Shown: positions 2,450-22,290 of the stretch, piece by piece
Layout: each line of letters begins with the position of its first letter
Numbering within the stretch: position 1 is the stretch's first letter
DNA from: a virus
Taxonomy: Duplodnaviria > Heunggongvirae > Uroviricota > Caudoviricetes
Virus record (IMG/VR): IMGVR_UViG_2675903562_000009
Reading direction: 5' to 3' (one strand)
Length of the DNA: 22,290 nt
Program-made: the position numbers and the translations under genes
Notes under the pieces: model-generated
What the model was told of the DNA's origin: nothing
What the model saw: only the letters and a program-made list of their open reading frames with translations
Database searches by the model: none

Positions 2450-3000
2450 TATCGCACCCTCAACAATGAATTTTGTGATGCGGTGCCTGGTGCCTCCAGG
2501 TGACGTTAACCAGTTAACAATTAACGCCGGATACAGAACCCCACCCATAACTTGGTTTTAACTGTTCCGCGTGCGCTTAGCCGCATTCACCGCATCACAA
2601 AATTCACTTTAAAAAGGACGGCAGAGCAGTCACGGAGTAAAACTGATACCGCCAAACGCCACCAGAAAATTGATAACAGAGGGCGTTGCAGCGGGGTTGT
2701 CACTTAAGCGCATGGTCAACCTGACAACCCGGTGTCTCAATGGGGGAGGAATAACCCCGCCATACTTACCGCCGCGCCATTTCGCGGAGTGCCACAACCG
2801 GAAGCGCACGGTCGACGAAAATTTAACGACAGGCTATCTATGAACCAACTACCTCGCCGTGCGCTTTCGCGTTATGCCCTGACTTTTCAGGAAAATGCCC
2901 TTTCAGTAAACTGTCAGTGCCGGATGCTCACCCGTGTCCGGCGCACGCACTCCACCTCACCCGTGGAGAACCCCTTAATTACCAACCCTCAGGAGGGTGA

Positions 3001-4110: not shown

Positions 4111-4785
4111 TCAGTCTAAGTATTGATGTATTTGTGAAACTTTACCTTTAATGGTGTAACCACCATTCAGTTCGATGGGTTTGTAAAGCGGATTCAGTGA
4201 CAACAGATAGATGTTTGGTCCGTCAATCGCAACTTTTTTTAGTGTTACGTTTGGCGTTCCTTCCAATTGGATTAAGATTATTTTTCCCACCAGTTCTCTA
4301 ATGTTACTTGAGCATGGTGTGATCAGCACGGTAGATCCGTCGGGGATGGTTGGGAGGCCGTTAGAGTTTGTCATCGCATCTCCCTCAACATGCAATAAAA
4401 AAGAGTTTTCAGCGGTTTTTGTCATGACATCAACCCAATTCTTAATACCAGGAATCTCGGTTACTGGACAACTCATATCCCAATAACCAGCCTGTTCCCA
4501 CGTTAAAACGGGCAACCGGGCGATGTTGTCACTAATGTAAAGGTACTGATTCAGACGCAGATCATCGGTTTTATCGTGACCGTCCTTTCCATAAAGAATC
4601 CATTCAGGAGATTTGGAAAGCAATTTTGACAGTAGATGCAAATTCTCACCGTCAGGTTTTGAAGAGCCATTTTCCCATTTTGTTACGGATACACGAGATA
4701 TGCCGATTGCTTTCGCAACCTGCTGTTGGGTTAATCCAACGTCTTTTCGACGATTCCGAATACGTTCGCTGATAGTGTTTTTCAT
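4111..4785 (-). CDS. cI: CI-type prophage repressor (XRE-family HTH N-terminal domain, S24/LexA-like C-terminal domain with Ala at the nucleophile position)
   Basis: HTH segment LTQQQVAKAIGISRVSVTKWENG; C-terminal domain has the LexA/CI-like VEGDAMT motif and a downstream LKK lysine. Start placed at ATG 4785 (MKNTISERIRN...), where the operator abuts the start codon with no SD (leaderless-like); the track ORF extends to a TTG at 4884, and 4827 is an alternative ATG. Confidence 0.85.
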   Translation of the reverse strand: MKNTISERIRNRRKDVGLTQQQVAKAIGISRVSVTKWENGSSKPDGENLHLLSKLLSKSPEWILYGKDGHDKTDDLRLNQYLYISDNIARLPVLTWEQAGYWDMSCPVTEIPGIKNWVDVMTKTAENSFLLHVEGDAMTNSNGLPTIPDGSTVLITPCSSNIRELVGKIILIQLEGTPNVTLKKVAIDGPNIYLLSLNPLYKPIELNGGYTIKGKVSQIHQYLD

Positions 4786-4860
4786 GTAACCAATGTTACT
4801 ACCAAGTGATGTTGCTATGGTTGACATTGTAATGTAACTATTGTTACCCTCCTGCTCGAA
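4786..4860. promoter_or_regulatory. OR-like divergent control region between cI and cro, with repeated GTAAC-N4-GTTAC operators
   Basis: GTAACCAATGTTAC at 4786-4799 and GTAACTATTGTTAC at 4834-4847, centres 48 bp apart, with a degenerate candidate (GTTGCTATGGTTGA) midway giving about 24-bp spacing. TTGACA hexamer at 4821-4826. Confidence 0.6.
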
Positions 4861-8977: not shown

Positions 8978-9400
8978 ATGACGAAATTTACCAGAGAGCA
9001 ATTGATTGCTCATGCTAATGAAAGTGTGAAATCCATGAAATTTGCTGCGCGACAGACCGTGTTTAAGACTTCAAGAGTTGCCATTGAAATGGATCTTGCG
9101 CTTGCCCGTATTGCGCTTGCCTCACTTGAAGCAATGCCAGTTGCATGGTCCTGTGCTCACAATATGGTTTTGTTCAATGCTGAATCTGTTGCGGCATACG
9201 CAAAACACTCAGCCATTGCGCCAAAACCCCTGTACGCTGCGCAACCGGCATCACTTTCACATGAGGAAGAGTTGACAATGCTGGTTAAACAATTGGTAAG
9301 TCAGTTGAAAAAAGCGAAACCAGATTGCAAATTACCGGATATGGCGATGGGGTATCTGGAGCGGAATGGGCTGATAAGCGCGGAGGATGTTTTACGATGA
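8978..9400 (+). CDS. Hypothetical phage protein (140 aa)
   Basis: Track ORF 8927..9400 trimmed to the ATG at 8978 (MTKFTREQLIAH...). Confidence 0.55.
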   Translation: MTKFTREQLIAHANESVKSMKFAARQTVFKTSRVAIEMDLALARIALASLEAMPVAWSCAHNMVLFNAESVAAYAKHSAIAPKPLYAAQPASLSHEEELTMLVKQLVSQLKKAKPDCKLPDMAMGYLERNGLISAEDVLR

Positions 9401-9480
9401 CCTGGCCGGAGGCATTCACAACGACAGGAATTGCAATGGCGGCAGCACTTGTTGTGTATTCGATTTGCCGCTGGGGATAA
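9397..9480 (+). CDS. Candidate 27-aa single-pass membrane peptide
   Basis: ATG overlaps the upstream stop (ATGA) and has a GGAGGA SD 9 nt upstream; encodes MTWPEAFTTTGIAMAAALVVYSICRWG. Below the ORF-track size cut-off. Confidence 0.35.
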   Translation: MTWPEAFTTTGIAMAAALVVYSICRWG

Positions 9481-9691
9481 AAACGGTTTGCAGTGAAAGG
9501 GGAGTTAAGTAGAATTGCTGCGGGTGCTTGAGGCTATCTGCCTCAGGCATGAACACCAAAAGGCAGATAGAGAAAAGCCCCAGTTAACATTACGCGTCCT
9601 GCAAGACGCTTAACATTAATCTGAGGCTCAATCTATGTCTCACAAATGTAGGTTAGCCTCTTACGTGCCGAAAGGCAAGGAGAAGCAGGCT

Positions 9692-9847
9692 ATGAAGCAG
9701 CAAAAGGCGATGTTAATCGCCCTTATCGTCATCTGTTTAACCGTCATAGTGACGGCACTGGTAACGAGGAAAGACCTCTGCGAGGTACGAATCCGAACCG
9801 GCCAGACGGAGGTCGCTGTCTTCACAGCTTACGAACCTGAGGAGTAA
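9692..9847 (+). CDS. hok: Hok/Gef-family type I toxin (51 aa) with in-frame upstream extension from 9635
   Basis: MKQQKAMLIALIVICLTVIVTALVTRKDLCEVRIRTGQTEVAVFTAYEPEE is near-identical in pattern to Gef/HokC as remembered; AAGGAGAAG SD; structured leader upstream and a 3' hairpin (GCGAGGG...CCCTCGC at 9856-9877) typical of hok mRNAs. Confidence 0.8.
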   Translation: MKQQKAMLIALIVICLTVIVTALVTRKDLCEVRIRTGQTEVAVFTAYEPEE

Positions 9848-9915
9848 GAGACCAGGCGAGGGAGAAATCCCTCGCCACCTCTGATGTGTCAGGCATCCTC
9901 AACGCACCCGCACTT

Positions 9916-9937
9916 AACCCGCTTCGGCGGGTTTTTC
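9916..9937 (+). terminator. Rho-independent terminator after hok
   Basis: AACCCGC-TTCG-GCGGGTT followed by TTTTT. Confidence 0.7.
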
Positions 9938-10062
9938 GTCGCATAATGAGGTTGTAATTTTAGCTACCATTAGACTATCCTAAGGATCTCAAACAGATCT
10001 ATTTTGCATCAAATTTGGTGCATGGCTTTGCCAATAATCGGAAAACAAAAGGACTCATTAGT

Positions 10063-10242
10063 ATGAGCTGCCCACTCAAAAAACACACGCGGTTGAGTAT
10101 TCCGCCTCGCGATAAAAGCGTTGTGGCAGTCCCTCGCCCAGCGATTGATGAAAACTGCGCACATCGTGAACAAGTGAAAAATGCTTTTGATTTCGGTTTT
10201 TCTCGTTATGAGAAAGCCATGGAAGAACTTTCAAAAGTGTAA
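10063..10242 (+). CDS. Small ORF (59 aa) upstream of the Doc-like toxin; candidate antitoxin
   Basis: AAGGA SD 9 nt upstream of ATG 10063; ends 18 nt before the Doc-like start; sequence not recognisably Phd/YefM-like. Confidence 0.45.
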   Translation: MSCPLKKHTRLSIPPRDKSVVAVPRPAIDENCAHREQVKNAFDFGFSRYEKAMEELSKV

Positions 10243-10260: not shown

Positions 10261-10746
10261 ATGGCTGAGATTGTTGAAGGAGTGCATTACCTTACGGTTG
10301 ATGATCTTGTTGAAATCAATCGTTCCCTAATTGAATTACAGACGCCAGATGAGCCCGTTGGTGTTCTGAGTCCAGATAACTTAAGTTCTTCTCAGGCCCG
10401 TCCCAGCATGGTTCGATGGTATGAACAGACTAATGACATGTTTGTACTGGCATCGGTATTGATTGAAAGTCTGATTCAGAATCATCCGTTTGCTAATGCG
10501 AACAAACGAACAGCTATGATGGCTGGTTACGTCTTCTTGTTGTTGAATGGCTATGAGTTAACAGCACCAGGCGATGAAATCGTGGAAATGGCAGAGGGAC
10601 TGGCCTGCAAAACCTATACTCGAGAAGATCTCGAGAACTGGTTGTGTTATTGGTCTCGCGCGTATGACAGCCGGGAATTATGTAAAACAGGCGCAACTAT
10701 TGTTTTGTATGAAACTATCAAGCTTAAAATAGAACAGCAAAACTAA
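10261..10746 (+). CDS. Doc/Fic-family toxin-like protein
   Basis: Contains HPFANANKRTA, matching the Doc-type variant of the Fic motif (HxFx[D/N][A/G]NKR); size is appropriate for a Fic/Doc family member. The track start is a TTG at 10252; the ATG at 10261 is preferred. Confidence 0.7.
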   Translation: MAEIVEGVHYLTVDDLVEINRSLIELQTPDEPVGVLSPDNLSSSQARPSMVRWYEQTNDMFVLASVLIESLIQNHPFANANKRTAMMAGYVFLLLNGYELTAPGDEIVEMAEGLACKTYTREDLENWLCYWSRAYDSRELCKTGATIVLYETIKLKIEQQN

Positions 10747-13387: not shown

Positions 13388-14152
13388 ATGGAAGAACAGC
13401 ACGGTAATTACTTTATAAAACGAATTCAGTTGATTGGAAGGGGTGCATTTGGCTTTGTTGAACACGTTAAGGTTTACAACCTCAACAAGGGTGAATGTGG
13501 GGATTATGCTAGAAAGGTTTTAGCCCCCGAAAAACCAGAGCTTTTGGCGCAAATAGAGCAGTTTAGAAGGCGTTTTAAAAGGGAGGTCGTGTATCAATCA
13601 CATTGCGTACATAGCAATATTGTTCCTATTTATTTGTGCGATTTGTTTGCCGAGAATCCATGGTTCATTATGGATAAAGCAGAATGTGATCTTGAGCACG
13701 AAATAACGAACAACCTTCTTACAACAGATCAAAAAATTTCAATAGTGAAAATGGTATTAGATGGTGTAGCTCACATCCATGCGAAAGGCTATTTACACAG
13801 AGATATAAAACCATTTAATGTCTTGCGATTTAGCGACGGAACATACAAGGTGTCTGATTTTGGTCTGGTAAAAGATACAAATCCCGAAGGGGATACCACT
13901 AAATTGACCGAGATCGGTACCCGTATGGGAAGTACAAGATATATGGCTCCCGAGATTTTATATAATGCCGAGTATTCAGTTAAGACTGATGTTTATGCGG
14001 TGGGGCGGTTAATTGAGGACTTAAATTTAGATGATAAAAAAATAAAGCCTATCATAGCGAAGTGTACCAGGATGGATAAAGATGATAGATATCAGACAAT
14101 AGATGATGTGGCGTTTGATTTTGTGCATTCTTTTTTAAGGAGTGAGTCATGA
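13388..14152 (+). CDS. Hanks-type (eukaryotic-like) Ser/Thr protein kinase
   Basis: 254 aa from ATG 13388. Gly-rich loop GRGAFGFV, lysine in YARKVL, catalytic loop HRDIKPFNVL, DFG (VSDFGLV) and APE (YMAPEIL) motifs all present; region is visibly AT-rich relative to neighbours (not computed). Confidence 0.85.
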   Translation: MEEQHGNYFIKRIQLIGRGAFGFVEHVKVYNLNKGECGDYARKVLAPEKPELLAQIEQFRRRFKREVVYQSHCVHSNIVPIYLCDLFAENPWFIMDKAECDLEHEITNNLLTTDQKISIVKMVLDGVAHIHAKGYLHRDIKPFNVLRFSDGTYKVSDFGLVKDTNPEGDTTKLTEIGTRMGSTRYMAPEILYNAEYSVKTDVYAVGRLIEDLNLDDKKIKPIIAKCTRMDKDDRYQTIDDVAFDFVHSFLRSES

Positions 14153-14892
14153 TTCAGCTGATAGCGACTTCATCATTCTCGTATCCAAAAGAACCAGGTA
14201 GGGTCAACGAAGATTCATTGCTTCCTCCCAAAATTGTAGGGGATGGCATCTTATTTGCCGTAGCTGATGGTGTAGGTTCATACACTGGTGCCAGTCAGGC
14301 TTCATCAATGGCAATTGCTGAACTTTCAGCATTGACAAGCTTATCTTTTGACACAGTTCCGGATGTATTTGATGAAGTTAAGCGAAAGGTTATGTCGTTA
14401 GCTGATGTTAATGATGAGTTCGATAAAGCTGCTACTACACTTACGTTTTGTTATGTTTGTGATAGCGGAATTATTATTGGTCATATTGGTGATTGTCGTT
14501 TGTATTGCATTGGAGAGAAGAAAGCATACCAATTGACGAAGGACGATACCAGGCATCAGATGCTAATTGATCAGAATATTTTTAAACCCAGAGATTTGAA
14601 GGATAAACCGGGCAAAAATATCTTAACGACGGCTATAGCCTCAAATGTTGATATGGAATACGACTGTGATTTTATCACATGGAAAGATTTACCTAGTATT
14701 AACGGGGTATATCATCTGTGTATCATGTCTGATGGGGTTCATAACGTTTGGGAAAAACGCCCCAGATTTACATCAAATACGATGAGTAATAGTCAGAAGT
14801 TTTCTAATGGCATTTTGCGTCGTATAGAGAGAGCCGGACCTGATGATGACTTTTCTTTAGTAAGTATAATGGTGCGTGTGACGTCAGATTAG
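14149..14892 (+). CDS. PP2C-family Ser/Thr protein phosphatase
   Basis: 247 aa; start overlaps the kinase stop (ATGA) with AAGGAG SD; metal-binding motifs VNEDS, AVADGVGS, GDCR and MSDGV typical of bacterial PP2C phosphatases. Confidence 0.85.
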   Translation: MIQLIATSSFSYPKEPGRVNEDSLLPPKIVGDGILFAVADGVGSYTGASQASSMAIAELSALTSLSFDTVPDVFDEVKRKVMSLADVNDEFDKAATTLTFCYVCDSGIIIGHIGDCRLYCIGEKKAYQLTKDDTRHQMLIDQNIFKPRDLKDKPGKNILTTAIASNVDMEYDCDFITWKDLPSINGVYHLCIMSDGVHNVWEKRPRFTSNTMSNSQKFSNGILRRIERAGPDDDFSLVSIMVRVTSD

Positions 14893-16558: not shown

Positions 16559-16634
16559 GGCCCTTTAGCTCAGTGGTGAGAGCGAGCGACTCATAATCGC
16601 CAGGTCGCTGGTTCAAATCCAGCAAGGGCCACCA
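16559..16634 (+). tRNA. tRNA with CAU anticodon; closely resembles E. coli tRNA-Ile2 (ileX-type, lysidine-dependent), Met not excluded
   Basis: 76 nt with perfect 7-bp acceptor stem (GGCCCTT/AAGGGCC), D-arm GCTCAGTGGTGAGAGC, anticodon loop CTCATAA, T-loop TTCAAAT and encoded CCA. Confidence 0.85.
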
Positions 16635-16635
16635 A

Positions 16636-16712
16636 CCGTCACCAGTTCATCAGGAAAGAGCGTCAACCCTTTAAGTTGAGTGTGCGAGGTTCGAGTCCTC
16701 GGTGGCGGGCCA
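16636..16712 (+). tRNA. Non-canonical tRNA-like gene (anticodon loop CCTTTAA, nominal UUU) or tRNA pseudogene
   Basis: Acceptor stem CCGTCAC/GTGGCGG (one G-U), T-arm CGAGG-TTCGAGT-CCTCG and encoded CCA, but C at positions 8 and 33 and an atypical D-arm. Begins 1 nt after the preceding tRNA. Confidence 0.45.
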
Positions 16713-16714
16713 GT

Positions 16715-16790
<76 letters not shown>

Positions 16791-16793
16791 TAT

Positions 16794-16868
<75 letters not shown>

Positions 16869-17142
16869 GCATTTGAAATAAGCCTTATTGTATTGCAGCA
16901 CTGGCGTATTTTTTATTACGTGGGAGCAGGTTGTTTTAAGAGACATTCTGTTCTCTGGCTATGATTTGAGGCCAGGTTAGCCTCAGTGCTGATTTTTTTT
17001 ACGACAGCAGAATGGTGCATTATCGGTGGAGATTTTGTATTTCCTGGCAGGGTCGGTAATGCATCATTCTGATGTTGTAAGCATCGCTCAGAATAACGTT
17101 GAGATTAATCGCGTACTAAGCAAAACTTGGAAATACATCCTT

Positions 17143-17168
17143 AACCGCCGCACCAGGCGGTTTTTTTT
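17143..17168 (+). terminator. Rho-independent terminator
   Basis: AACCGCC-GCACCA-GGCGGTT followed by eight T. Confidence 0.75.
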
Positions 17169-17183
17169 ATTCATTTTTTTCAT

Positions 17184-17206
17184 GGCTCGCTACGGCGGGC
17201 CTTTTT
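17184..17206 (+). terminator. Rho-independent terminator (second of a stack)
   Basis: GGCTCGC-TACG-GCGGGCC followed by TTTTT. Confidence 0.55.
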
Positions 17207-17292
17207 CATATCCTCGCCACACCCGGCGCATATCACATCAAATAACGCCGCGCAAAAGGCATCTGCGGGCGCCTTTGACGGGGTGTTTTTAC

Positions 17293-17314
17293 GGGCCGCT
17301 GGTGGCCCTTTTTT
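17293..17314 (+). terminator. Rho-independent terminator (third of a stack), 20 nt upstream of the next start codon
   Basis: GGGCC-GCTGGT-GGCCC followed by TTTTTT. Confidence 0.65.
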
Positions 17315-17333
17315 ATTTACAGGAGAAAAACGT

Positions 17334-18746
17334 ATGTCTGAACCCTTATCTGGTTCCGGCACGGCTGCGGCGCTCGGTGGGGCGACGGTATTCGGGCTGT
17401 TTACCGGAACGGATTTCGGGATTGTGTTTGGTGCGTTCGCCGGGGCGTTATTTGTGGCAACGATGCCGCAGGCGCTTTCAATCTGGCGTGTGGTGGCGCA
17501 TTTTTTGGTGTCGTTTATCGTCGGCGTGCTGGGGGCGCGCGTGCTGTCAGCCTGGATTGCATCAAAAACAGGGTATGACGGTACATCGGCAGATGCGCTG
17601 TGTGCGGTGCTGGTATCGGTGGTGTCGGTGAAGATTGCGGATATCAGGCAGGTTGAAACCACAGCACGCTATCTTGGCACGGCGCTGTACTGGATAGCCG
17701 CCAGTATCAATATCAGGCCGGGCCATAATTATTATTTTTACGTTCGCAGTGTGAACACCGTTGGCAAATCGGCATTCGTGGAGGCTGTTGGTCAGCCGAG
17801 TGATGACGCATCCGGCTATCTGGATTTTTTCAAAGGCGAGATAGGGAAAACCCATCTGGCTCAGGAGCTGTGGACGCAGATTGATAACGGTCAGCTTGCG
17901 CCTGACCTGGCTGAAATCAGGACATCCATTACGGATGTCAGCAATGAAATCACACAGACCGTCAATAAGAAACTGGAAGACCAGAGTGCAGCGATCCAGC
18001 AGATACAGAAGGTTCAGGTTGATACAAATAATAACCTGAACAGCATGTGGGCTGTGAAGCTGCAGCAGATGCAGGACGGACGCCTTTATATCGCGGGTAT
18101 CGGTGCCGGTATTGAGAATACGCCAGCAGGCATGCAGAGTCAGGTGCTGCTGGCGGCAGACAGGATTGCGATGATTAATCCTGCGAATGGCAACACAAAG
18201 CCGATGTTTGTTGGTCAGGGCGATCAGATATTCATGAACGAAGTGTTCCTGAAATATCTGACGGCTCCCACCATTACCAGCGGCGGTAATCCTCCGGCAT
18301 TTTCCCTGACACCGGACGGAAAGCTGACCGCTAAAAATGCGGATATCAGTGGCAGTGTGAATGCGAACTCCGGGACGCTCAACAACGTCACGATTAACGA
18401 GAACTGCCGGGTTCTGGGAAAACTGTCCGCGAACCAGATTGAAGGCGATCTCGTTAAAACAGTGGGCAAAGCTTTCCCCCGGGACTCCCGTGCACCGGAG
18501 CGGTGGCCATCAGGGACCATTACCGTCAGGGTTTATGACGATCAGCCGTTTGACCGGCAAATTGTTATTCCGGCGGTGGCATTCAGTGGCGCTAAGCATG
18601 AGAGAGAGCATACTGATATTTACTCCTCATGCCGTCTGATAGTGCGGAAAAACGGTGCTGAAATTTATAACCGTACCGCGCTGGATAATACGCTGATTTA
18701 CAGTGGCGTTCCCGCCGTCACATGCCGGGACCATCACCGTGTATGA
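17334..18746 (+). CDS. Chimeric ORF: about 100-aa hydrophobic N-terminus joined to a C-terminal fragment resembling tail-tip host-specificity protein J; likely a deletion remnant
   Basis: ATG 17334 with AGGAGA SD. First ~100 aa contain three hydrophobic stretches. From about [42 protein letters not shown] onward the sequence parallels the C-terminal third of lambda J as remembered ([42 protein letters not shown]). Confidence 0.6.
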
Positions 18747-21480
18747 AGATTCCCGACCCGGTACGCTGAATGATTTTCTCGGTGCCATGACGGAGGATGA
18801 TGCCCGTCCGGAGGCACTGCGCCGTTTTGAACTGATGGTGGAAGAGGTGGCGCGTAACGCGTCCGCAGTGGCACAGAACACGGCAGCCGCGAAGAAGTCA
18901 GCCAGTGATGCCAGCACATCAGCCCGTGAGGCGGCAACCCATGCGACTGATGCTGCAGGCTCAGCACGCGCAGCCAGCACGTCAGCCGGACAGGCCGCGT
19001 CGTCGGCTCAGTCAGCGTCTTCCAGCGCAGGAACGGCATCGACAAAGGCCAGTGAAGCAGCGAAAAGTGCTGCTGCTGCAGAGTCATCAAAAAGCGCGGC
19101 AGCTACCAGCGCCAGTGCCGCGAAAACGTCAGAAACGAATGCCGCAGCATCACAAAAATCGGCAGCCACTTCTGCATCCACAGCGACCACGAAGGCGTCA
19201 GAAGCTGCCACCTCGGCACGGGGGGCGGCGGCCTCAAAAGAGGCAGCGAAATCATCAGAAACGAATGCATCATCAAGTGCCAGTAGTGCAGCTTCCTCGG
19301 CAACGGCGGCAGGAAATTCCGCGAAGGCGGCAAAGACGTCTGAGACAAACGCTAAGTCTTCTGAAACGGCAGCAGCACAGAGTGCCTCAGCTGCGGCAGG
19401 TTCAAAAACAGCGGCTGCATCGTCGGCCAGTGCCGCGTCAACAAGTGCCGGGCAGGCCTCAGCCAGTGCCACCGCCGCCGGAAAATCGGCAGAAAGCGCC
19501 GCATCATCCGCTTCAACAGCCACAACGAAGGCTGGCGAAGCCACTAAGCAAGCCACTGCAGCAGCGAGGTCTGCTTCTGCAGCAAAAACCTCTGAAACAA
19601 ATGCAAAGACTTCAGCAGACAATGCTGCTTCCTCTAAGGCGGCAGCCGCATCGTCCGCTGGTTCAGCGGCGTCATCGGCATCATCTGCGTCTGCTTCAAA
19701 AGATGAGGCGACCAGACAAGCGTCAGCAGCGAAAGGTAGTGCCACGACAGCAACAACGAAAGCATCAGAGGCGGCAGGCAGTGCGACGGCTGCATCTCAG
19801 AGCAAAGTTGCTGCTGAATCCGCGGCAACGCGTGCCGAAACAGCAGCAAAACGGGCAGAGGATATTGCTGATGCCGTATCTCTGGAAGATGCGAGCACGA
19901 CGAAAAAAGGTGTGGTTCAGCTCAGCAGTGCGACCAACAGCACTTCCGAGTCACTGGCGGCAACACCAAAGGCAGTAAAGGCAGCATATGACCTTGCTAA
20001 CGCAAAATATACCGCTCAGGATGCAACGACGGCACGAAAAGGGATAGTTCAGCTCAGTAGCGCCACTAACAGCCCGTCTGAAACGCTGGCTGCGACACCA
20101 AAAGCGGTTAAGGCGGTAATGGATGAAACGAACAAGAAAGCGCCTTTAAACAGTCCTGCGCTGACCGGAACGCCAACAACGCCAACTGCGCCAAAAGGGA
20201 CTAATAATACTCAGATCGCAAGCACGGCTTATGTGATGGCCGCGATTGCCGCACTTGTAGACTCGTCGCCTGACGCACTGAATACGCTGAACGAGCTGGC
20301 GGCGGCGCTGGGAAACGACCCGAATTTTGCGACCACCATGACTAACGCGCTTGCGGGTAAGCAACCGAAAGATGCCACCCTGACGGCGCTGGCCGGGCTT
20401 GCTACTGCGGCAGACAGGTTTCCGTATTTTACGGGGAATGATGTCGCCAGCCTGGCAACCCTGACAAAAGTCGGGCGGGATATTCTTGCGAAATCGACCG
20501 TTGCCGCTGTTATCGAATACCTCGGTTTACAGGAAACGGTAAGTCAGGCTTCTGGCGCATTACAGAAAAACCAGAACGGCGCAGATATTCCAGGAAAAGA
20601 TACCTTCACCAAAAATATTGGTGCCTGCCGCGCATATAGCTCATGGCTGAATATTGGTGGCGATAGTCAGGTCTGGACAACCGCGCAATTTATTTCGTGG
20701 CTGGAGAGTCAGGGGGCATTTAACCATCCTTACTGGATGTGCAAAGGCTCATGGGCTTATGCAAATAATAAGGTCATTACAGATACAGGTTGCGGAAATA
20801 TTTGTCTTGCAGGTGCTGTGGTGGAAGTTATTGGCACTCGCGGCGCAATGACCATACGCGTTACTACGCCGAGCACGTCCAGCGGTGGCGGAATTACTAA
20901 CGCTCAATTCACTTATATTAATCATGGTGATGCTTACGCTCCTGGCTGGCGACGAGACTACAACACGAAAAACCAGCAGCCTGCATTTGCTTTAGGGCAA
21001 ACAGGACGCAGGGTCGCAAATGATAAAGCTGTTGGCTGGAACTGGAATAGCGGTGTTTATGATGCAGATATCAGTGGTGCATCGACATTAATCCTCCACT
21101 TCAATATGAATGCGGGGAGTTGCCCTGCTGTACAGTTCCGCGTGAATTACAGGAACGGCGGTATTTTTTATCGTTCAGCGCGTGATGGTTATGGCTTTGA
21201 AGCTAACTGGTCAGAGTTTTACACCACAACACGCAAACCCTCTGCGGGGGATGTTGGTGCATATACGCAGGCAGAATGTAACTCAAGGTTTATTACAGGT
21301 ATTCGCCTTGGCGGTCTGTCATCTGTTCAGACATGGAAAGGCCCCGGCTGGTCTGACAGGTCAGGTTATGTCGTTACGGGTTCAGTTAACGGAAACCGTG
21401 ATGAATTAATTGATACAACTCAGGCAAGGCCAATTCAGTATTGCATTAATGGGACGTGGTATAACGCGGGGAGTATTTAA
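18703..21480 (+). CDS. stf: Side tail fibre protein (Stf/StfR-like), lacking the usual N-terminal about 55 aa
   Basis: 925-aa ORF. Begins at a GTG with no SD, exactly at the conserved [15 protein letters not shown] motif; long Ala/Ser-rich repeat region; duplicated KKG(V/I)[21 protein letters not shown] module; C-terminal domain with YRNGG(I/L)FYRS(A/S)RDGYGFE. Opposite-strand and alternate-frame ORFs here are artefacts. Confidence 0.85.
18880..19900 (+). repeat. Coding low-complexity tandem repeats (Ala/Ser/Thr-rich fibre shaft)
   Basis: Recurring DNA units such as GCGAAAACGTCAGAAACGAATGC / GCAAAGACGTCTGAGACAAACGC encoding AKTSETNA-type motifs. Confidence 0.7.
20511..20536. other. gix/pix/cix-like crossover site for a Gin/Pin-family DNA invertase, inside stf
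   Basis: TTATCGAATACCTCGGTTTACAGGAA differs at about 2 positions from the Mu gix sequence as remembered (TTATCCAAAACCTCGGTTTACAGGAA); it lies in the codons for [10 protein letters not shown], the conserved constant/variable boundary of invertible tail-fibre genes. Confidence 0.7.
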
Positions 21481-21482
21481 CG

Positions 21483-22016
21483 ATGATGCACTTAAAAAAC
21501 ATTACTGCTGGCAACCCTAAAACAAAAGAGCAATACCAGCTAACAAAGCAATTTAACATCAAATGGCTTTATTCAGATGATGGAAAAAACTGGTATGAGG
21601 AACAAAAGAATTTCCAGCCAGACACTTTGAAAATGGTCTATGACCATAACGGCGTTATTATTTGTATTGAAAAGGATGTTTCAGCAATTAATCCAGAGGG
21701 TGCAAGCGTCGTTGAATTACCTGATATTACAGCAAATCGCCGGGCTGATATTTCGGGGAAATGGATGTTCAAAGATGGCGTAGTGATAAAGCGAACTTAT
21801 ACCGAGGAAGAGCAGAGGCAACAAGCGGAAAATGAAAAGCAAAGCCTGTTGCAACTTGTCAGGGATAAAACCCAGCTATGGGACTCACAGCTACGGCTGG
21901 GCATCATTTCCGACGAGAATAAACAAAAATTAACCGAGTGGATGCTCTATGCGCAGAAAGTCGAATCTACAGACACCTCCAGCCTGCCAGTAACATTTCC
22001 AGAACAACCAGCATGA
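21483..22016 (+). CDS. tfa: Tail fibre assembly protein (Tfa family)
   Basis: 177 aa immediately after stf (GGGGAG SD); C-terminal pattern EEQRQQAE...L.EW..Y...V...DTSS.P..FPEQP typical of Tfa chaperones. Confidence 0.8.
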   Translation: MMHLKNITAGNPKTKEQYQLTKQFNIKWLYSDDGKNWYEEQKNFQPDTLKMVYDHNGVIICIEKDVSAINPEGASVVELPDITANRRADISGKWMFKDGVVIKRTYTEEEQRQQAENEKQSLLQLVRDKTQLWDSQLRLGIISDENKQKLTEWMLYAQKVESTDTSSLPVTFPEQPA

Positions 22017-22021
22017 AACAA

Positions 22022-22046
22022 GGCCCGATAGCGGGCCTTAATTTTT
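22022..22046. terminator. Hairpin between convergent tfa genes (probable bidirectional terminator)
   Basis: GGCCCG-ATAG-CGGGCC followed by TTAATTTTTATT on the plus strand and by a short T-containing tract on the minus strand. Confidence 0.5.
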
Positions 22047-22290
22047 ATTCAGGCTTTTGTGGCCATTCAGGATTTGCCGTATCCACACGGCTGACCAGAA
22101 CACTGTAGCGTCCCCATGCTTCCAGTCGTGTGCGTTCCTCGTCTGTTGCCATATTCAGCCTGACAGCGCGTTCCAGCGGCCGAATAACGCTTTCTGCTTC
22201 GGAAAGTAACGCGGCCTTTTGTGATTCGGCCTGTTGTTGCTGTTCGTCAGCCGTATAAATCCGTTTAACGACTGCGTCGTCCTTAAACAT
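22045..22290 (-). CDS. Inverted second tfa-like gene, 5' part beyond window end (alternate tail-fibre cassette)
   Basis: Minus-strand ORF whose product ([21 protein letters not shown]...[26 protein letters not shown]) parallels the C-terminal half of the plus-strand Tfa; the ATG at the window edge corresponds to an internal Met of the plus-strand Tfa, so the gene probably extends past 22290. Confidence 0.7.

Follow-up and report, generated by a model that had tools for sequence, protein, structure and literature searches.

A probably intact hok/sok-type toxin–antitoxin cassette, of the same lineage as hokD and hokW, within a defective lambdoid prophage

The window, a stretch of 22,290 nucleotides from a viral record assigned to the Caudoviricetes (IMGVR_UViG_2675903562_000009), carries on its plus strand a short toxin gene of the hokD/hokW type (hok, 9692–9847), which is preceded by the Shine-Dalgarno (SD) sequence AAGGAG at 9677–9682. 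The translated 51-amino-acid peptide, MKQQKAMLIALIVICLTVIVTALVTRKDLCEVRIRTGQTEVAVFTAYEPEE, shows the features of a Hok protein, namely a length of about 50 residues, an N-terminal hydrophobic helix, and a conserved cysteine-containing C-terminal region (MKQQKAMLIALIVICLTVIVTALVTRKDLCEV...). It matches the Pfam profile HOK_GEF (PF01848) over all of its 42 positions with 82.9 bits against a cut-off of 22 (E = 1.2e-23) and is identical in every residue to HokD (RelF) of Escherichia coli K-12, which bears out its assignment to the Hok/Gef family in a first-pass annotation of the same DNA. RefSeq likewise names the identical protein, WP_000813254.1, HokD. Two NCBIfam models score below their curated cut-offs, NF007279 (Hok subfamily) with 48.5 against 73 and NF007290 (HokA equivalog) with 40.2 against 89; both derive from other Hok subgroups. 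A second reading frame, mok (9635–9847, plus strand), comprises 70 codons, lies in frame with hok and ends at the same stop codon; its ATG at 9635 is located 57 nt upstream of the hok start and 8 nt downstream of an SD sequence, GAGG (9623–9626). An in-frame upstream start at this position had been proposed as the counterpart of mok, and the open reading frame found there agrees with the annotation of mokW in phage 933W and of mokC in K-12, both of which are in frame in the same way.

Both genes lie on a predicted hok mRNA of ~415 nt, which extends on the plus strand from a G at 9522 to a terminator U-run ending at 9936. Its promoter (9487–9515) consists of a −35 hexamer TTTGCA at 9487–9492, a 17-nt spacer, and a −10 hexamer TAGAAT at 9510–9515. 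This is the sole σ70-like site called in the region 9350–10100, which is no excess over chance since shuffled versions of the region yield 0.9 sites on average. The 5′ end at 9522 is derived from promoter spacing together with homology to plasmid R1 and hokW, and it coincides with the first base of the match to Rfam family RF01794 (‘sok antitoxin’; plus strand, 9522–9697; 121.6 bits against a gathering score of 59; E = 1.2e-27; full model, 1–157). In almost all of 73 related loci described below, a −10-like hexamer is found 6–7 nt ahead of a GG(G)YGC start. The predicted mRNA (9522–9938) folds with −173.7 kcal/mol (z = −8.1 relative to shuffles), and the Rfam match bears out the structured leader noticed at first reading. 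The same reading had begun the unit at 9560; the start has to be moved to about 9487 for the promoter and 9522 for the mRNA, as a start at 9560 drops the hok promoter and the first 38 nt of the transcript, including its 5′ tac element. Downstream of the stop codon, a local hairpin is predicted by RNA folding at 9855–9876 (GGCGAGGGA/UCCCUCGCC), followed by an intrinsic terminator (9916–9936) of the form AACCCGC-UUCG-GCGGGUU with its hairpin at 9916–9933 and a T5 run at 9932–9936. The latter was read directly from the sequence and substantiates the terminator mentioned earlier. Matches of the 3′ UTR to the Rfam families isrK (27 bits versus 50) and rsmX (22.6 versus 56) were rejected as they reflect only a generic hairpin-plus-terminator shape.

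On the minus strand, opposite the leader, a Sok antisense RNA of 71 nt is predicted at 9643→9573, a position that was transferred through alignment from the SokW feature of phage 933W (AF125520). An antisense RNA had been expected around the leader on this strand, and the mapping now gives it a place. In its predicted fold (−30 kcal/mol, z = −6.1 versus shuffles), a 5′ tail of 14 unpaired nucleotides (GUGAGACAUAGAUU) precedes a long hairpin, which is followed by a terminal UUUU; the tail covers the mok AUG, the overlap between Sok and the start of mok amounting to 9 nt (9635–9643). The hairpin is more stable on the antisense than on the sense strand (−30.0 versus −19.1 kcal/mol). The Sok promoter (9650–9678, minus strand) could be read directly as a −35 hexamer TTGCCT (9678→9673), a 17-nt spacer, and a −10 hexamer TAACCT (9655→9650), with Sok starting 7 nt beyond the −10 element. 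With four and three of six positions agreeing with the consensus, the match is weak, and in a generic σ70 scan of 9350–10100 this promoter stayed under the threshold and was not called. The search for a minus-strand σ70 promoter suggested by the first-pass annotation nevertheless ends at a promoter identical to the tested one of sokW: the window equals 933W from 9647 to 9715 without a mismatch, both hexamers included. In the ‘pro-less’ primer YO-421, other bases take the place of AGGTTA, the plus-strand complement of the −10 element, and the sokW construct made with this primer lost its antitoxin activity (PMC8621323). A simple terminator scan of 9350–10100 called neither the hok mRNA terminator nor the Sok terminator; the hok terminator, the Sok promoter, and the Sok terminator were placed via direct reading, homology to the annotated and tested sokW, and folding. 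The Rfam ‘sok’ hit was rejected as proof of an antisense gene. The model matches the plus strand, the hok sense strand, with its last consensus bases falling on the hok AUG, and hence describes the leader of hok mRNA; on the minus strand, the match reaches only 21.1 bits. At the level of sequence, the hallmarks of a sok gene are all present: the leader houses an antisense promoter, and the RNA expected from it combines a single-stranded 5′ tail lying across the mok start with a hairpin and a terminal run of U residues.

The hok mRNA further contains the putative elements of a conformational switch. In the minimum free energy fold of the full-length mRNA, the translational activator element, tac (9522–9533, GGGUGCUUGAGG), is predicted to be clamped by 12 pairs to the fold-back inhibitory element, fbi (9897–9909, CCUCAACGCACCC), which starts ~50 nt after the stop codon. 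In the same fold, the upstream complementary box, ucb (AGCCCC, 9576–9581), pairs with the mok SD region (9623–9628) and thereby covers the mok SD sequence, and the SD sequence and AUG of hok are located inside helices. Upon in silico 3′ truncation to 9896, which removes fbi, tac re-pairs with ucb and the mok SD region becomes the partner of the downstream complementary box, dcb (AGCCUC, 9655–9660). A 3′ fold-back hairpin had been reported for this mRNA: the local hairpin at 9855–9876 does exist, but the functional fold-back would be the pairing of 9897–9909 with 9522–9533. Both conformations are energy-minimized predictions from a single sequence, and the exchange of partners appears with the 3′ end set at 9896 and is absent at 9900 or 9890. 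Owing to this dependence on the chosen end, a folding switch of the window mRNA on 3′ trimming is suggestive and falls short of proof. The same pairing exchange has been described for the hok mRNA of plasmid R1 (PMC9841398).

The arrangement was compared across the family by scanning one genome per species for a pattern spanning the leader, GCCTCTTACN{10,13}CAAGGAGAAG. Loci with hok were retrieved from Escherichia, Shigella, Kluyvera, Citrobacter, Klebsiella, Serratia, Pantoea, Erwinia, Atlantibacter, Franconibacter, and others, and the set finally used consists of 73 distinct loci from Enterobacterales with an intact hok gene and enough flanking sequence. No hok open reading frame accompanies the pattern in metagenome-assembled genomes of archaea, Bacteroidota, and Collinsella, and these hits were rejected; hits outside the Enterobacterales fit chance, which for 19 specified bases in 596 Gb is roughly estimated to produce ~17 matches. 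Short contigs assigned to Xanthomonas (431 bp), Haemophilus (2.6 kb), and ‘Scatousia’ (3 kb) bear fragments identical to hokD, which resemble contamination. A tac element is recognizable in 70 loci and occurs in five variants, each accompanied by a complementary fbi: GGGUGCUUGAGGC, GGCGCUUGAGGC, GGGUGCUUGAGAC, GGGUGCUCUGGAU, and GGGCGCCUGAGGC, each given here with its complementary segment. In most loci, the segment equivalent to fbi is found 44–57 nt past the stop codon. In the 70 loci, tac forms a duplex of −20.9 kcal/mol on average with its own 3′ UTR, compared with −16.7 kcal/mol for the 3′ UTRs of other tac groups and −14.7 kcal/mol for shuffled ones. Compensatory variation affects at least seven tac–fbi positions that have changed on both sides, counting only pairs picked by the duplex optimizer. 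In 70 of the 73 loci, the Sok hairpin in its antisense form exceeds the sense complement in stability (mean −22.8 versus −12.3 kcal/mol), as would be expected if selection had favored G·U pairs in the antisense RNA; a G·U signature confined to one strand suggests that it is the antisense structure on which selection has acted. TAACCT, the −10 hexamer of the window, is the commonest one for Sok (18/73 loci). Predicted Sok RNAs fall into a short class of ~49–56 nt, comprising hokC and most plasmid-type loci, with 60–65 nt in R1-identical loci, and a long class of ~69–74 nt with a 16-nt stem extension, to which the window, hokW, and the Kluyvera loci belong.

A mok-like ATG 56–58 nt upstream of hok is a feature of the family as a whole, only a few of the 73 loci being devoid of it. 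Many loci, including the window, hokC, and hokW, have an in-frame mok of 68–71 amino acids starting at 57 nt, and in others a mok of the same length range starts at 58 nt and is out of frame. The latter group includes three R1-type loci (L088, L099, and L101) whose Hok proteins match the R1 query, two exactly and one with two differing residues. The idea that an in-frame mok is atypical was therefore dropped: both frames are common, mokC and mokW representing the in-frame and R1 the out-of-frame type, and the mok of the window is normal. Coexistence of the two frames is consistent with translation through the leader, rather than the Mok peptide, being what matters.

Among known systems, hokW–mokW–sokW of the Stx2 phage 933W and of Sakai prophage Sp5 is the nearest, with 93% nucleotide identity to the window locus, and a phage collection yields matches to the locus in Stx-converting phages. 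The 933W record has mokW, hokW, and a ‘SokW antisense RNA’ as annotated features at the corresponding position. Its HokW has 51 residues like the window protein, differing in five C-terminal ones, and the two loci share the in-frame 70-codon mok, the 71-nt long-hairpin Sok, the Sok promoter, and a lambdoid prophage setting. They diverge in the Sok 5′ tail and the underlying mok codons 2–4, where five of 14 positions differ (GUGAGACAUAGAUU in the window, GUUCAGCAUGGAUU in 933W). Homology stops at ~9921, the terminator of the window being absent from 933W. In the linear record of that phage (61.7 kb), the cassette is placed between L0139 and L0136 (58.4–58.7 kb), unlike the window cassette, which lies between replication genes and a Fic/Doc gene in a defective prophage. 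The hokW–sokW locus of Sp5 constitutes a working type I toxin–antitoxin system (Takada et al. 2021, PMC8621323): HokW is toxic and found in the inner membrane, its toxicity is neutralized by sokW transcribed from the native sokW promoter, both RNAs are seen on northern blots, and RNase III and Hfq contribute partially. In Sp5 treated with mitomycin C, sokW RNA vanishes and HokW appears in a RecA-dependent manner, and deletion of hokW–sokW halves phage release (PMC8621323). The window locus is thus an element of an already known type with a near-identical, experimentally characterized relative.

Plasmid R1 and its IncF relatives carry hok/sok (parB) with an organization like that of the window: a tac element, a ucb, a mok start 57–58 nt upstream, a Sok promoter inside the mok–hok leader, an fbi ~50 nt past the stop codon, and a terminator. 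The tac sequence itself is GGCGCUUGAGG in R1 and GGGUGCUUGAGG in the window, with a matching fbi in each. At the protein level, HokW, which is five residues away from the window Hok, has 44% identity to R1 Hok (PMC8621323). In R1-type loci (L088, L099, L101), mok begins 58 nt upstream and out of frame, whereas that of the window is in frame, and the R1-type Sok is shorter (~53–65 nt) and devoid of the 16-nt stem extension. The K-12 locus hokC/mokC/sokC (gef) resembles the window in possessing an in-frame mok that ends at the hok stop, the same tac, and a 9-nt overlap of sokC with the mokC start. In contrast to the long Sok of the window, sokC belongs to the short-hairpin class (~52 nt), and hokC is a chromosomal, non-prophage locus with IS186 immediately downstream. 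The K-12 locus encoding the identical Hok protein, hokD (relF) of the Qin cryptic prophage, is near-identical in DNA sequence from the hok SD (~9677) through the 3′ UTR hairpin, fbi, and terminator. Its homology to the window ends ~17 nt upstream of the ATG, where relBE (relE) abuts; tac, ucb, the mok start, the Sok target, and the sok promoter, all present in the window, are missing from it. Judged by sequence, K-12 hokD is best described as a 5′-truncated remnant and the window locus as the complete, ancestral-type cassette. Qin shares dicB, DicF, and ydfC with the window prophage.

A query covering 9400–10000 (601 nt) finds identical copies in four chromosomes of enterotoxigenic E. coli (ETEC), where the coding sequence is annotated as ‘hokD: type I toxin-antitoxin system toxin HokD’; TW10690, E1739, and E1316 are examples of ETEC strains with the identical locus. 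Among 5,426 complete E. coli genomes, 4,731 contain some match, and in 1,076 of them a match at one place spans 80% or more of the query. The best match to the full window is ETEC strain E1739, with 99.5% identity over 93% of the window. According to the E1739 annotation, the gene order begins with a 3′–5′ exonuclease, dicB, DicF (2616–2667, minus strand, identified by Rfam), and ydfC, and continues with a CI-like LexA-family repressor (4111–4827, minus strand), cro, ydaT, replication genes, and hok. After hok follow a 59-amino-acid open reading frame, a Fic/Doc family toxin gene (10261–10746) that adjoins the hok locus, DUF968, rusA, and Q; the last part holds a Ser/Thr kinase, a PP2C phosphatase, a DNA methyltransferase, three tRNAs, a truncated lom, and tail-fiber genes. 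The neighboring genes are thus of the lambdoid-prophage type, as had been supposed when the locus was placed within a prophage, and the cassette lies in the early-right region between replication genes and Q, with hok oriented like the cro–O/P–Q genes. From the tRNAs to the truncated lom and tail-fiber genes, the E1739 annotation lists no holin, endolysin, head, or tail-shaft genes, and with lysis, head, and tail-shaft genes missing, the prophage is defective.

Taken together, the locus is in all probability (roughly 90%) a type I toxin–antitoxin cassette of the hok/sok kind that is intact, belongs to the hokD/hokW lineage, and resides in a defective lambdoid prophage. By direct reading and folding, its elements are undamaged, including both promoters, tac, ucb, the mok ATG, dcb, hok, fbi, and the terminator. 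The observation of a hok/gef-like locus is confirmed, no described feature being plausibly derived by chance, and the interpretation given to it at first reading is supported. By analogy with its relatives, we infer that the window locus would also resemble them in transcription, 3′ processing, Sok turnover, and toxicity. On the plasmid R1 model, a constitutive promoter would supply a stable hok mRNA of ~415 nt, in which tac is clamped to fbi and ucb hides the mok ribosome-binding site; because of this clamp and the covering of the mok ribosome-binding site, the full-length RNA is proposed to be neither translated nor bound by Sok. Slow 3′ trimming would then strip fbi, allowing tac to pair with ucb and shifting the mok SD into the dcb hairpin. 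As long as the unstable 71-nt Sok is available, the trimmed mRNA would be bound, with the Sok 5′ tail over the mok start codon, and degraded, presumably by RNase III. Once Sok is depleted, the trimmed mRNA would be translated, and through coupling of hok to mok translation the 51-amino-acid Hok would be made, enter the inner membrane, and kill or lyse the cell. The cassette could serve to retain prophage DNA (addiction) and/or to damage the membrane after prophage induction or the SOS response, the latter having been shown for hokW–sokW. Stabilization of the element, killing linked to SOS or induction, and abortive infection are all possible roles.

Many chromosomal hok loci are inactive, and the question arises whether the window locus is also a decayed, silent relic like those of the K-12 chromosome, in which the peptide reading frame has been kept and regulation or expression lost. 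There are precedents, since K-12 hokD retains only the stretch from the SD sequence to the terminator and has no leader, mok, or sok, in several loci of the family the mok ATG has become ATA or hok is disrupted, and the host prophage is itself defective. However, no damaged element is found in the window locus, the sequence is 96–100% conserved across many ETEC genomes, and the functional sokW is driven by an identical promoter. A relic is therefore very improbable, and an intact cassette is preferred.

Given an intact cassette, its main benefit might be sought elsewhere than in post-segregational stabilization. It might chiefly aid lysis or death on prophage induction in the way of Sp5 hokW–sokW, with rightward early transcription reading through the locus and silencing the convergent sok promoter. 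The disappearance of sokW and the rise of HokW in Sp5 after mitomycin C, together with the halved release on deletion (PMC8621323), speak for such a role, as do the co-orientation of hok with cro–O/P–Q and the presence of genes for a CI-like LexA-family repressor and a cro-like protein. The read-through route, on the other hand, is our own proposal, and loss of the lysis and morphogenesis genes leaves no progeny to be released, so the phage-release role of hokW does not apply here as such; this function is tenable yet doubtful. Less likely still is a cassette acting mainly in abortive infection, whereby a lytic phage would stop host transcription, Sok would decay, and Hok would kill the cell early. 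R1 hok/sok on a high-copy plasmid does lower the plating efficiency and plaque size of T4 (a report cited in PMC8621323). This effect is modest and stems from a high-copy plasmid; loci of the hokD/hokW lineage might act likewise. The adjoining Fic/Doc toxin gene at 10261–10746 would fit a defensive function insofar as two toxin genes could represent a defense-type cluster.

The significance of the locus reaches little beyond annotation. In the identical genome copies checked, RefSeq marks only the hokD coding sequence and leaves mok, Sok, and the cis-regulatory RNA elements unannotated. The label ‘hokD’ conceals what is, from its sequence, a complete and probably active killer cassette, unlike the K-12 namesake. 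To the previous description are added exact coordinates for Sok, the Sok promoter, and the switch elements, and a unit start at 9487/9522 instead of 9560. For work on prophage stability, SOS-induced death, and persistence in ETEC, an intact hok/sok locus beside a Fic/Doc gene is worth knowing.

A side observation concerns the Sok recognition tail. Among close relatives, no other stretch of the transcript ahead of the terminator region varies as much as the ~20-nt block 9627–9646, which comprises the mok start and this tail, and the block also differs between copies on the same chromosome that encode identical or near-identical Hok proteins. Variants of the tail include GUGAGACAUAGAUU in the window, GUUCAGCAUGGAUU in 933W, and GCAAAGCAUGAAAU. 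Tentatively, and with the odds against it, this variability might be ascribed to diversifying selection that keeps the hok/sok cassettes of co-resident prophages orthogonal. If this were true, the Sok of one prophage could not rescue the cell from losing another prophage, a situation analogous to that of the incompatibility determinants of antisense-controlled plasmid replicons. The variability of the tail, if confirmed, would make a small addition to what is understood about the coexistence of multiple type I toxin–antitoxin copies in one genome.

Judged from its sequence, the hok/sok locus is a mosaic with respect to its two best-known relatives, hokW of the Stx2 phage 933W and hokD of the Qin prophage of E. 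coli K-12. The leader of the locus matches that of 933W hokW but not that of K-12 hokD, whereas its terminator matches that of hokD and finds no match in 933W, which diverges from ~9921. The positions concerned are 9921-9960 of the window, ~2020-2070 of locus L002, and the minus strand of locus L003.

Variation is also concentrated in a short block within the leader. Among 19 close relatives, positions 9627-9646 (both strands) vary more than any other part of the transcript lying 5′ of the terminator region, with 0.9-1.13 bits per column; the flanking regions are almost invariant in the same relatives (0.03-0.1 bits). This block surrounds the mok start and at the same time constitutes the 5′ tail of Sok, the predicted antisense RNA. 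Copies residing together in one chromosome carry different Sok tails despite encoding identical or near-identical Hok peptides; variation of this kind is tied to the related loci L027, L039, L043, L069, and L072. In S. flexneri SFBU1023, for instance, three distinct tails are found, GTTCAGCATGGATT, GTGAGACATAGATT, and GCAAAGCATGAAAT. The 9627-9646 block may act as an orthogonality determinant.

The Rfam model RF01794, termed “sok antitoxin”, matches positions 9522-9697 on the plus strand. Since this model represents the hok leader in its sense orientation, its last bases being the hok AUG, the match marks the hok 5′ UTR rather than the strand of the Sok gene. The hok 3′ UTR (9856-9937, plus strand) aligns with isrK, an sRNA of the Salmonella Gifsy-1 prophage, at 27 bits, which is below the Rfam gathering score of 50, and the alignment reflects a common hairpin-plus-terminator layout and nothing more.

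Several relatives bear doubtful taxonomic labels. A phage record ascribed to Actinobacillus pleuropneumoniae (H26, PP818812.1) contains the present E. coli locus at 96.5% identity, and hokD-identical fragments are found on short contigs of 0.4-3 kb assigned to Xanthomonas pisi, a Haemophilus MAG, or “Candidatus Scatousia”. These matches probably represent contamination or misattribution; loci L034, L044, and L067 are listed alongside H26.

The surrounding prophage harbors the small RNA DicF (2616-2667, minus strand; RF00039, 70.8 bits versus 48) adjoining dicB and ydfC, a module also present in Qin. Downstream of Q, the gene for a Ser/Thr protein kinase of eukaryote-like type (Pkinase, E=2e-33) overlaps that for a PP2C phosphatase (E=2.1e-14); both lie on the plus strand (13388-14892). 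In the 16559-22290 part, three tRNA genes with the anticodons CAU, UUU, and UCC, for which a genome of 99.5% identity gives the annotations Ile, Lys, and Gly, are directly followed by lom, which is truncated, and by genes for tail fibres. Because lysis and morphogenesis genes are missing between the tRNAs and these genes, the prophage is defective.

Upstream of hok, an unannotated, hydrophobic ORF of 27 codons (9397-9480, plus strand; product MTWPEAFTTTGIAMAAALVVYSICRWG) begins with an ATG sharing bases with the stop codon of the preceding gene (ATGA) and ends just short of the hok promoter. It is kept open in 933W, L027, and L072, where substitutions are hydrophobic, and may encode a small membrane protein. 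Directly 3′ of hok, a plus-strand ORF of 59 aa (10063-10242) without a match in Pfam precedes a gene for a Fic/DOC-family protein of 161 aa (10261-10746, plus strand; PF02661, E=6.6e-12), labelled “type II toxin-antitoxin system death-on-curing family toxin” in RefSeq. Together, the two would form a second toxin-antitoxin-like module adjoining hok.
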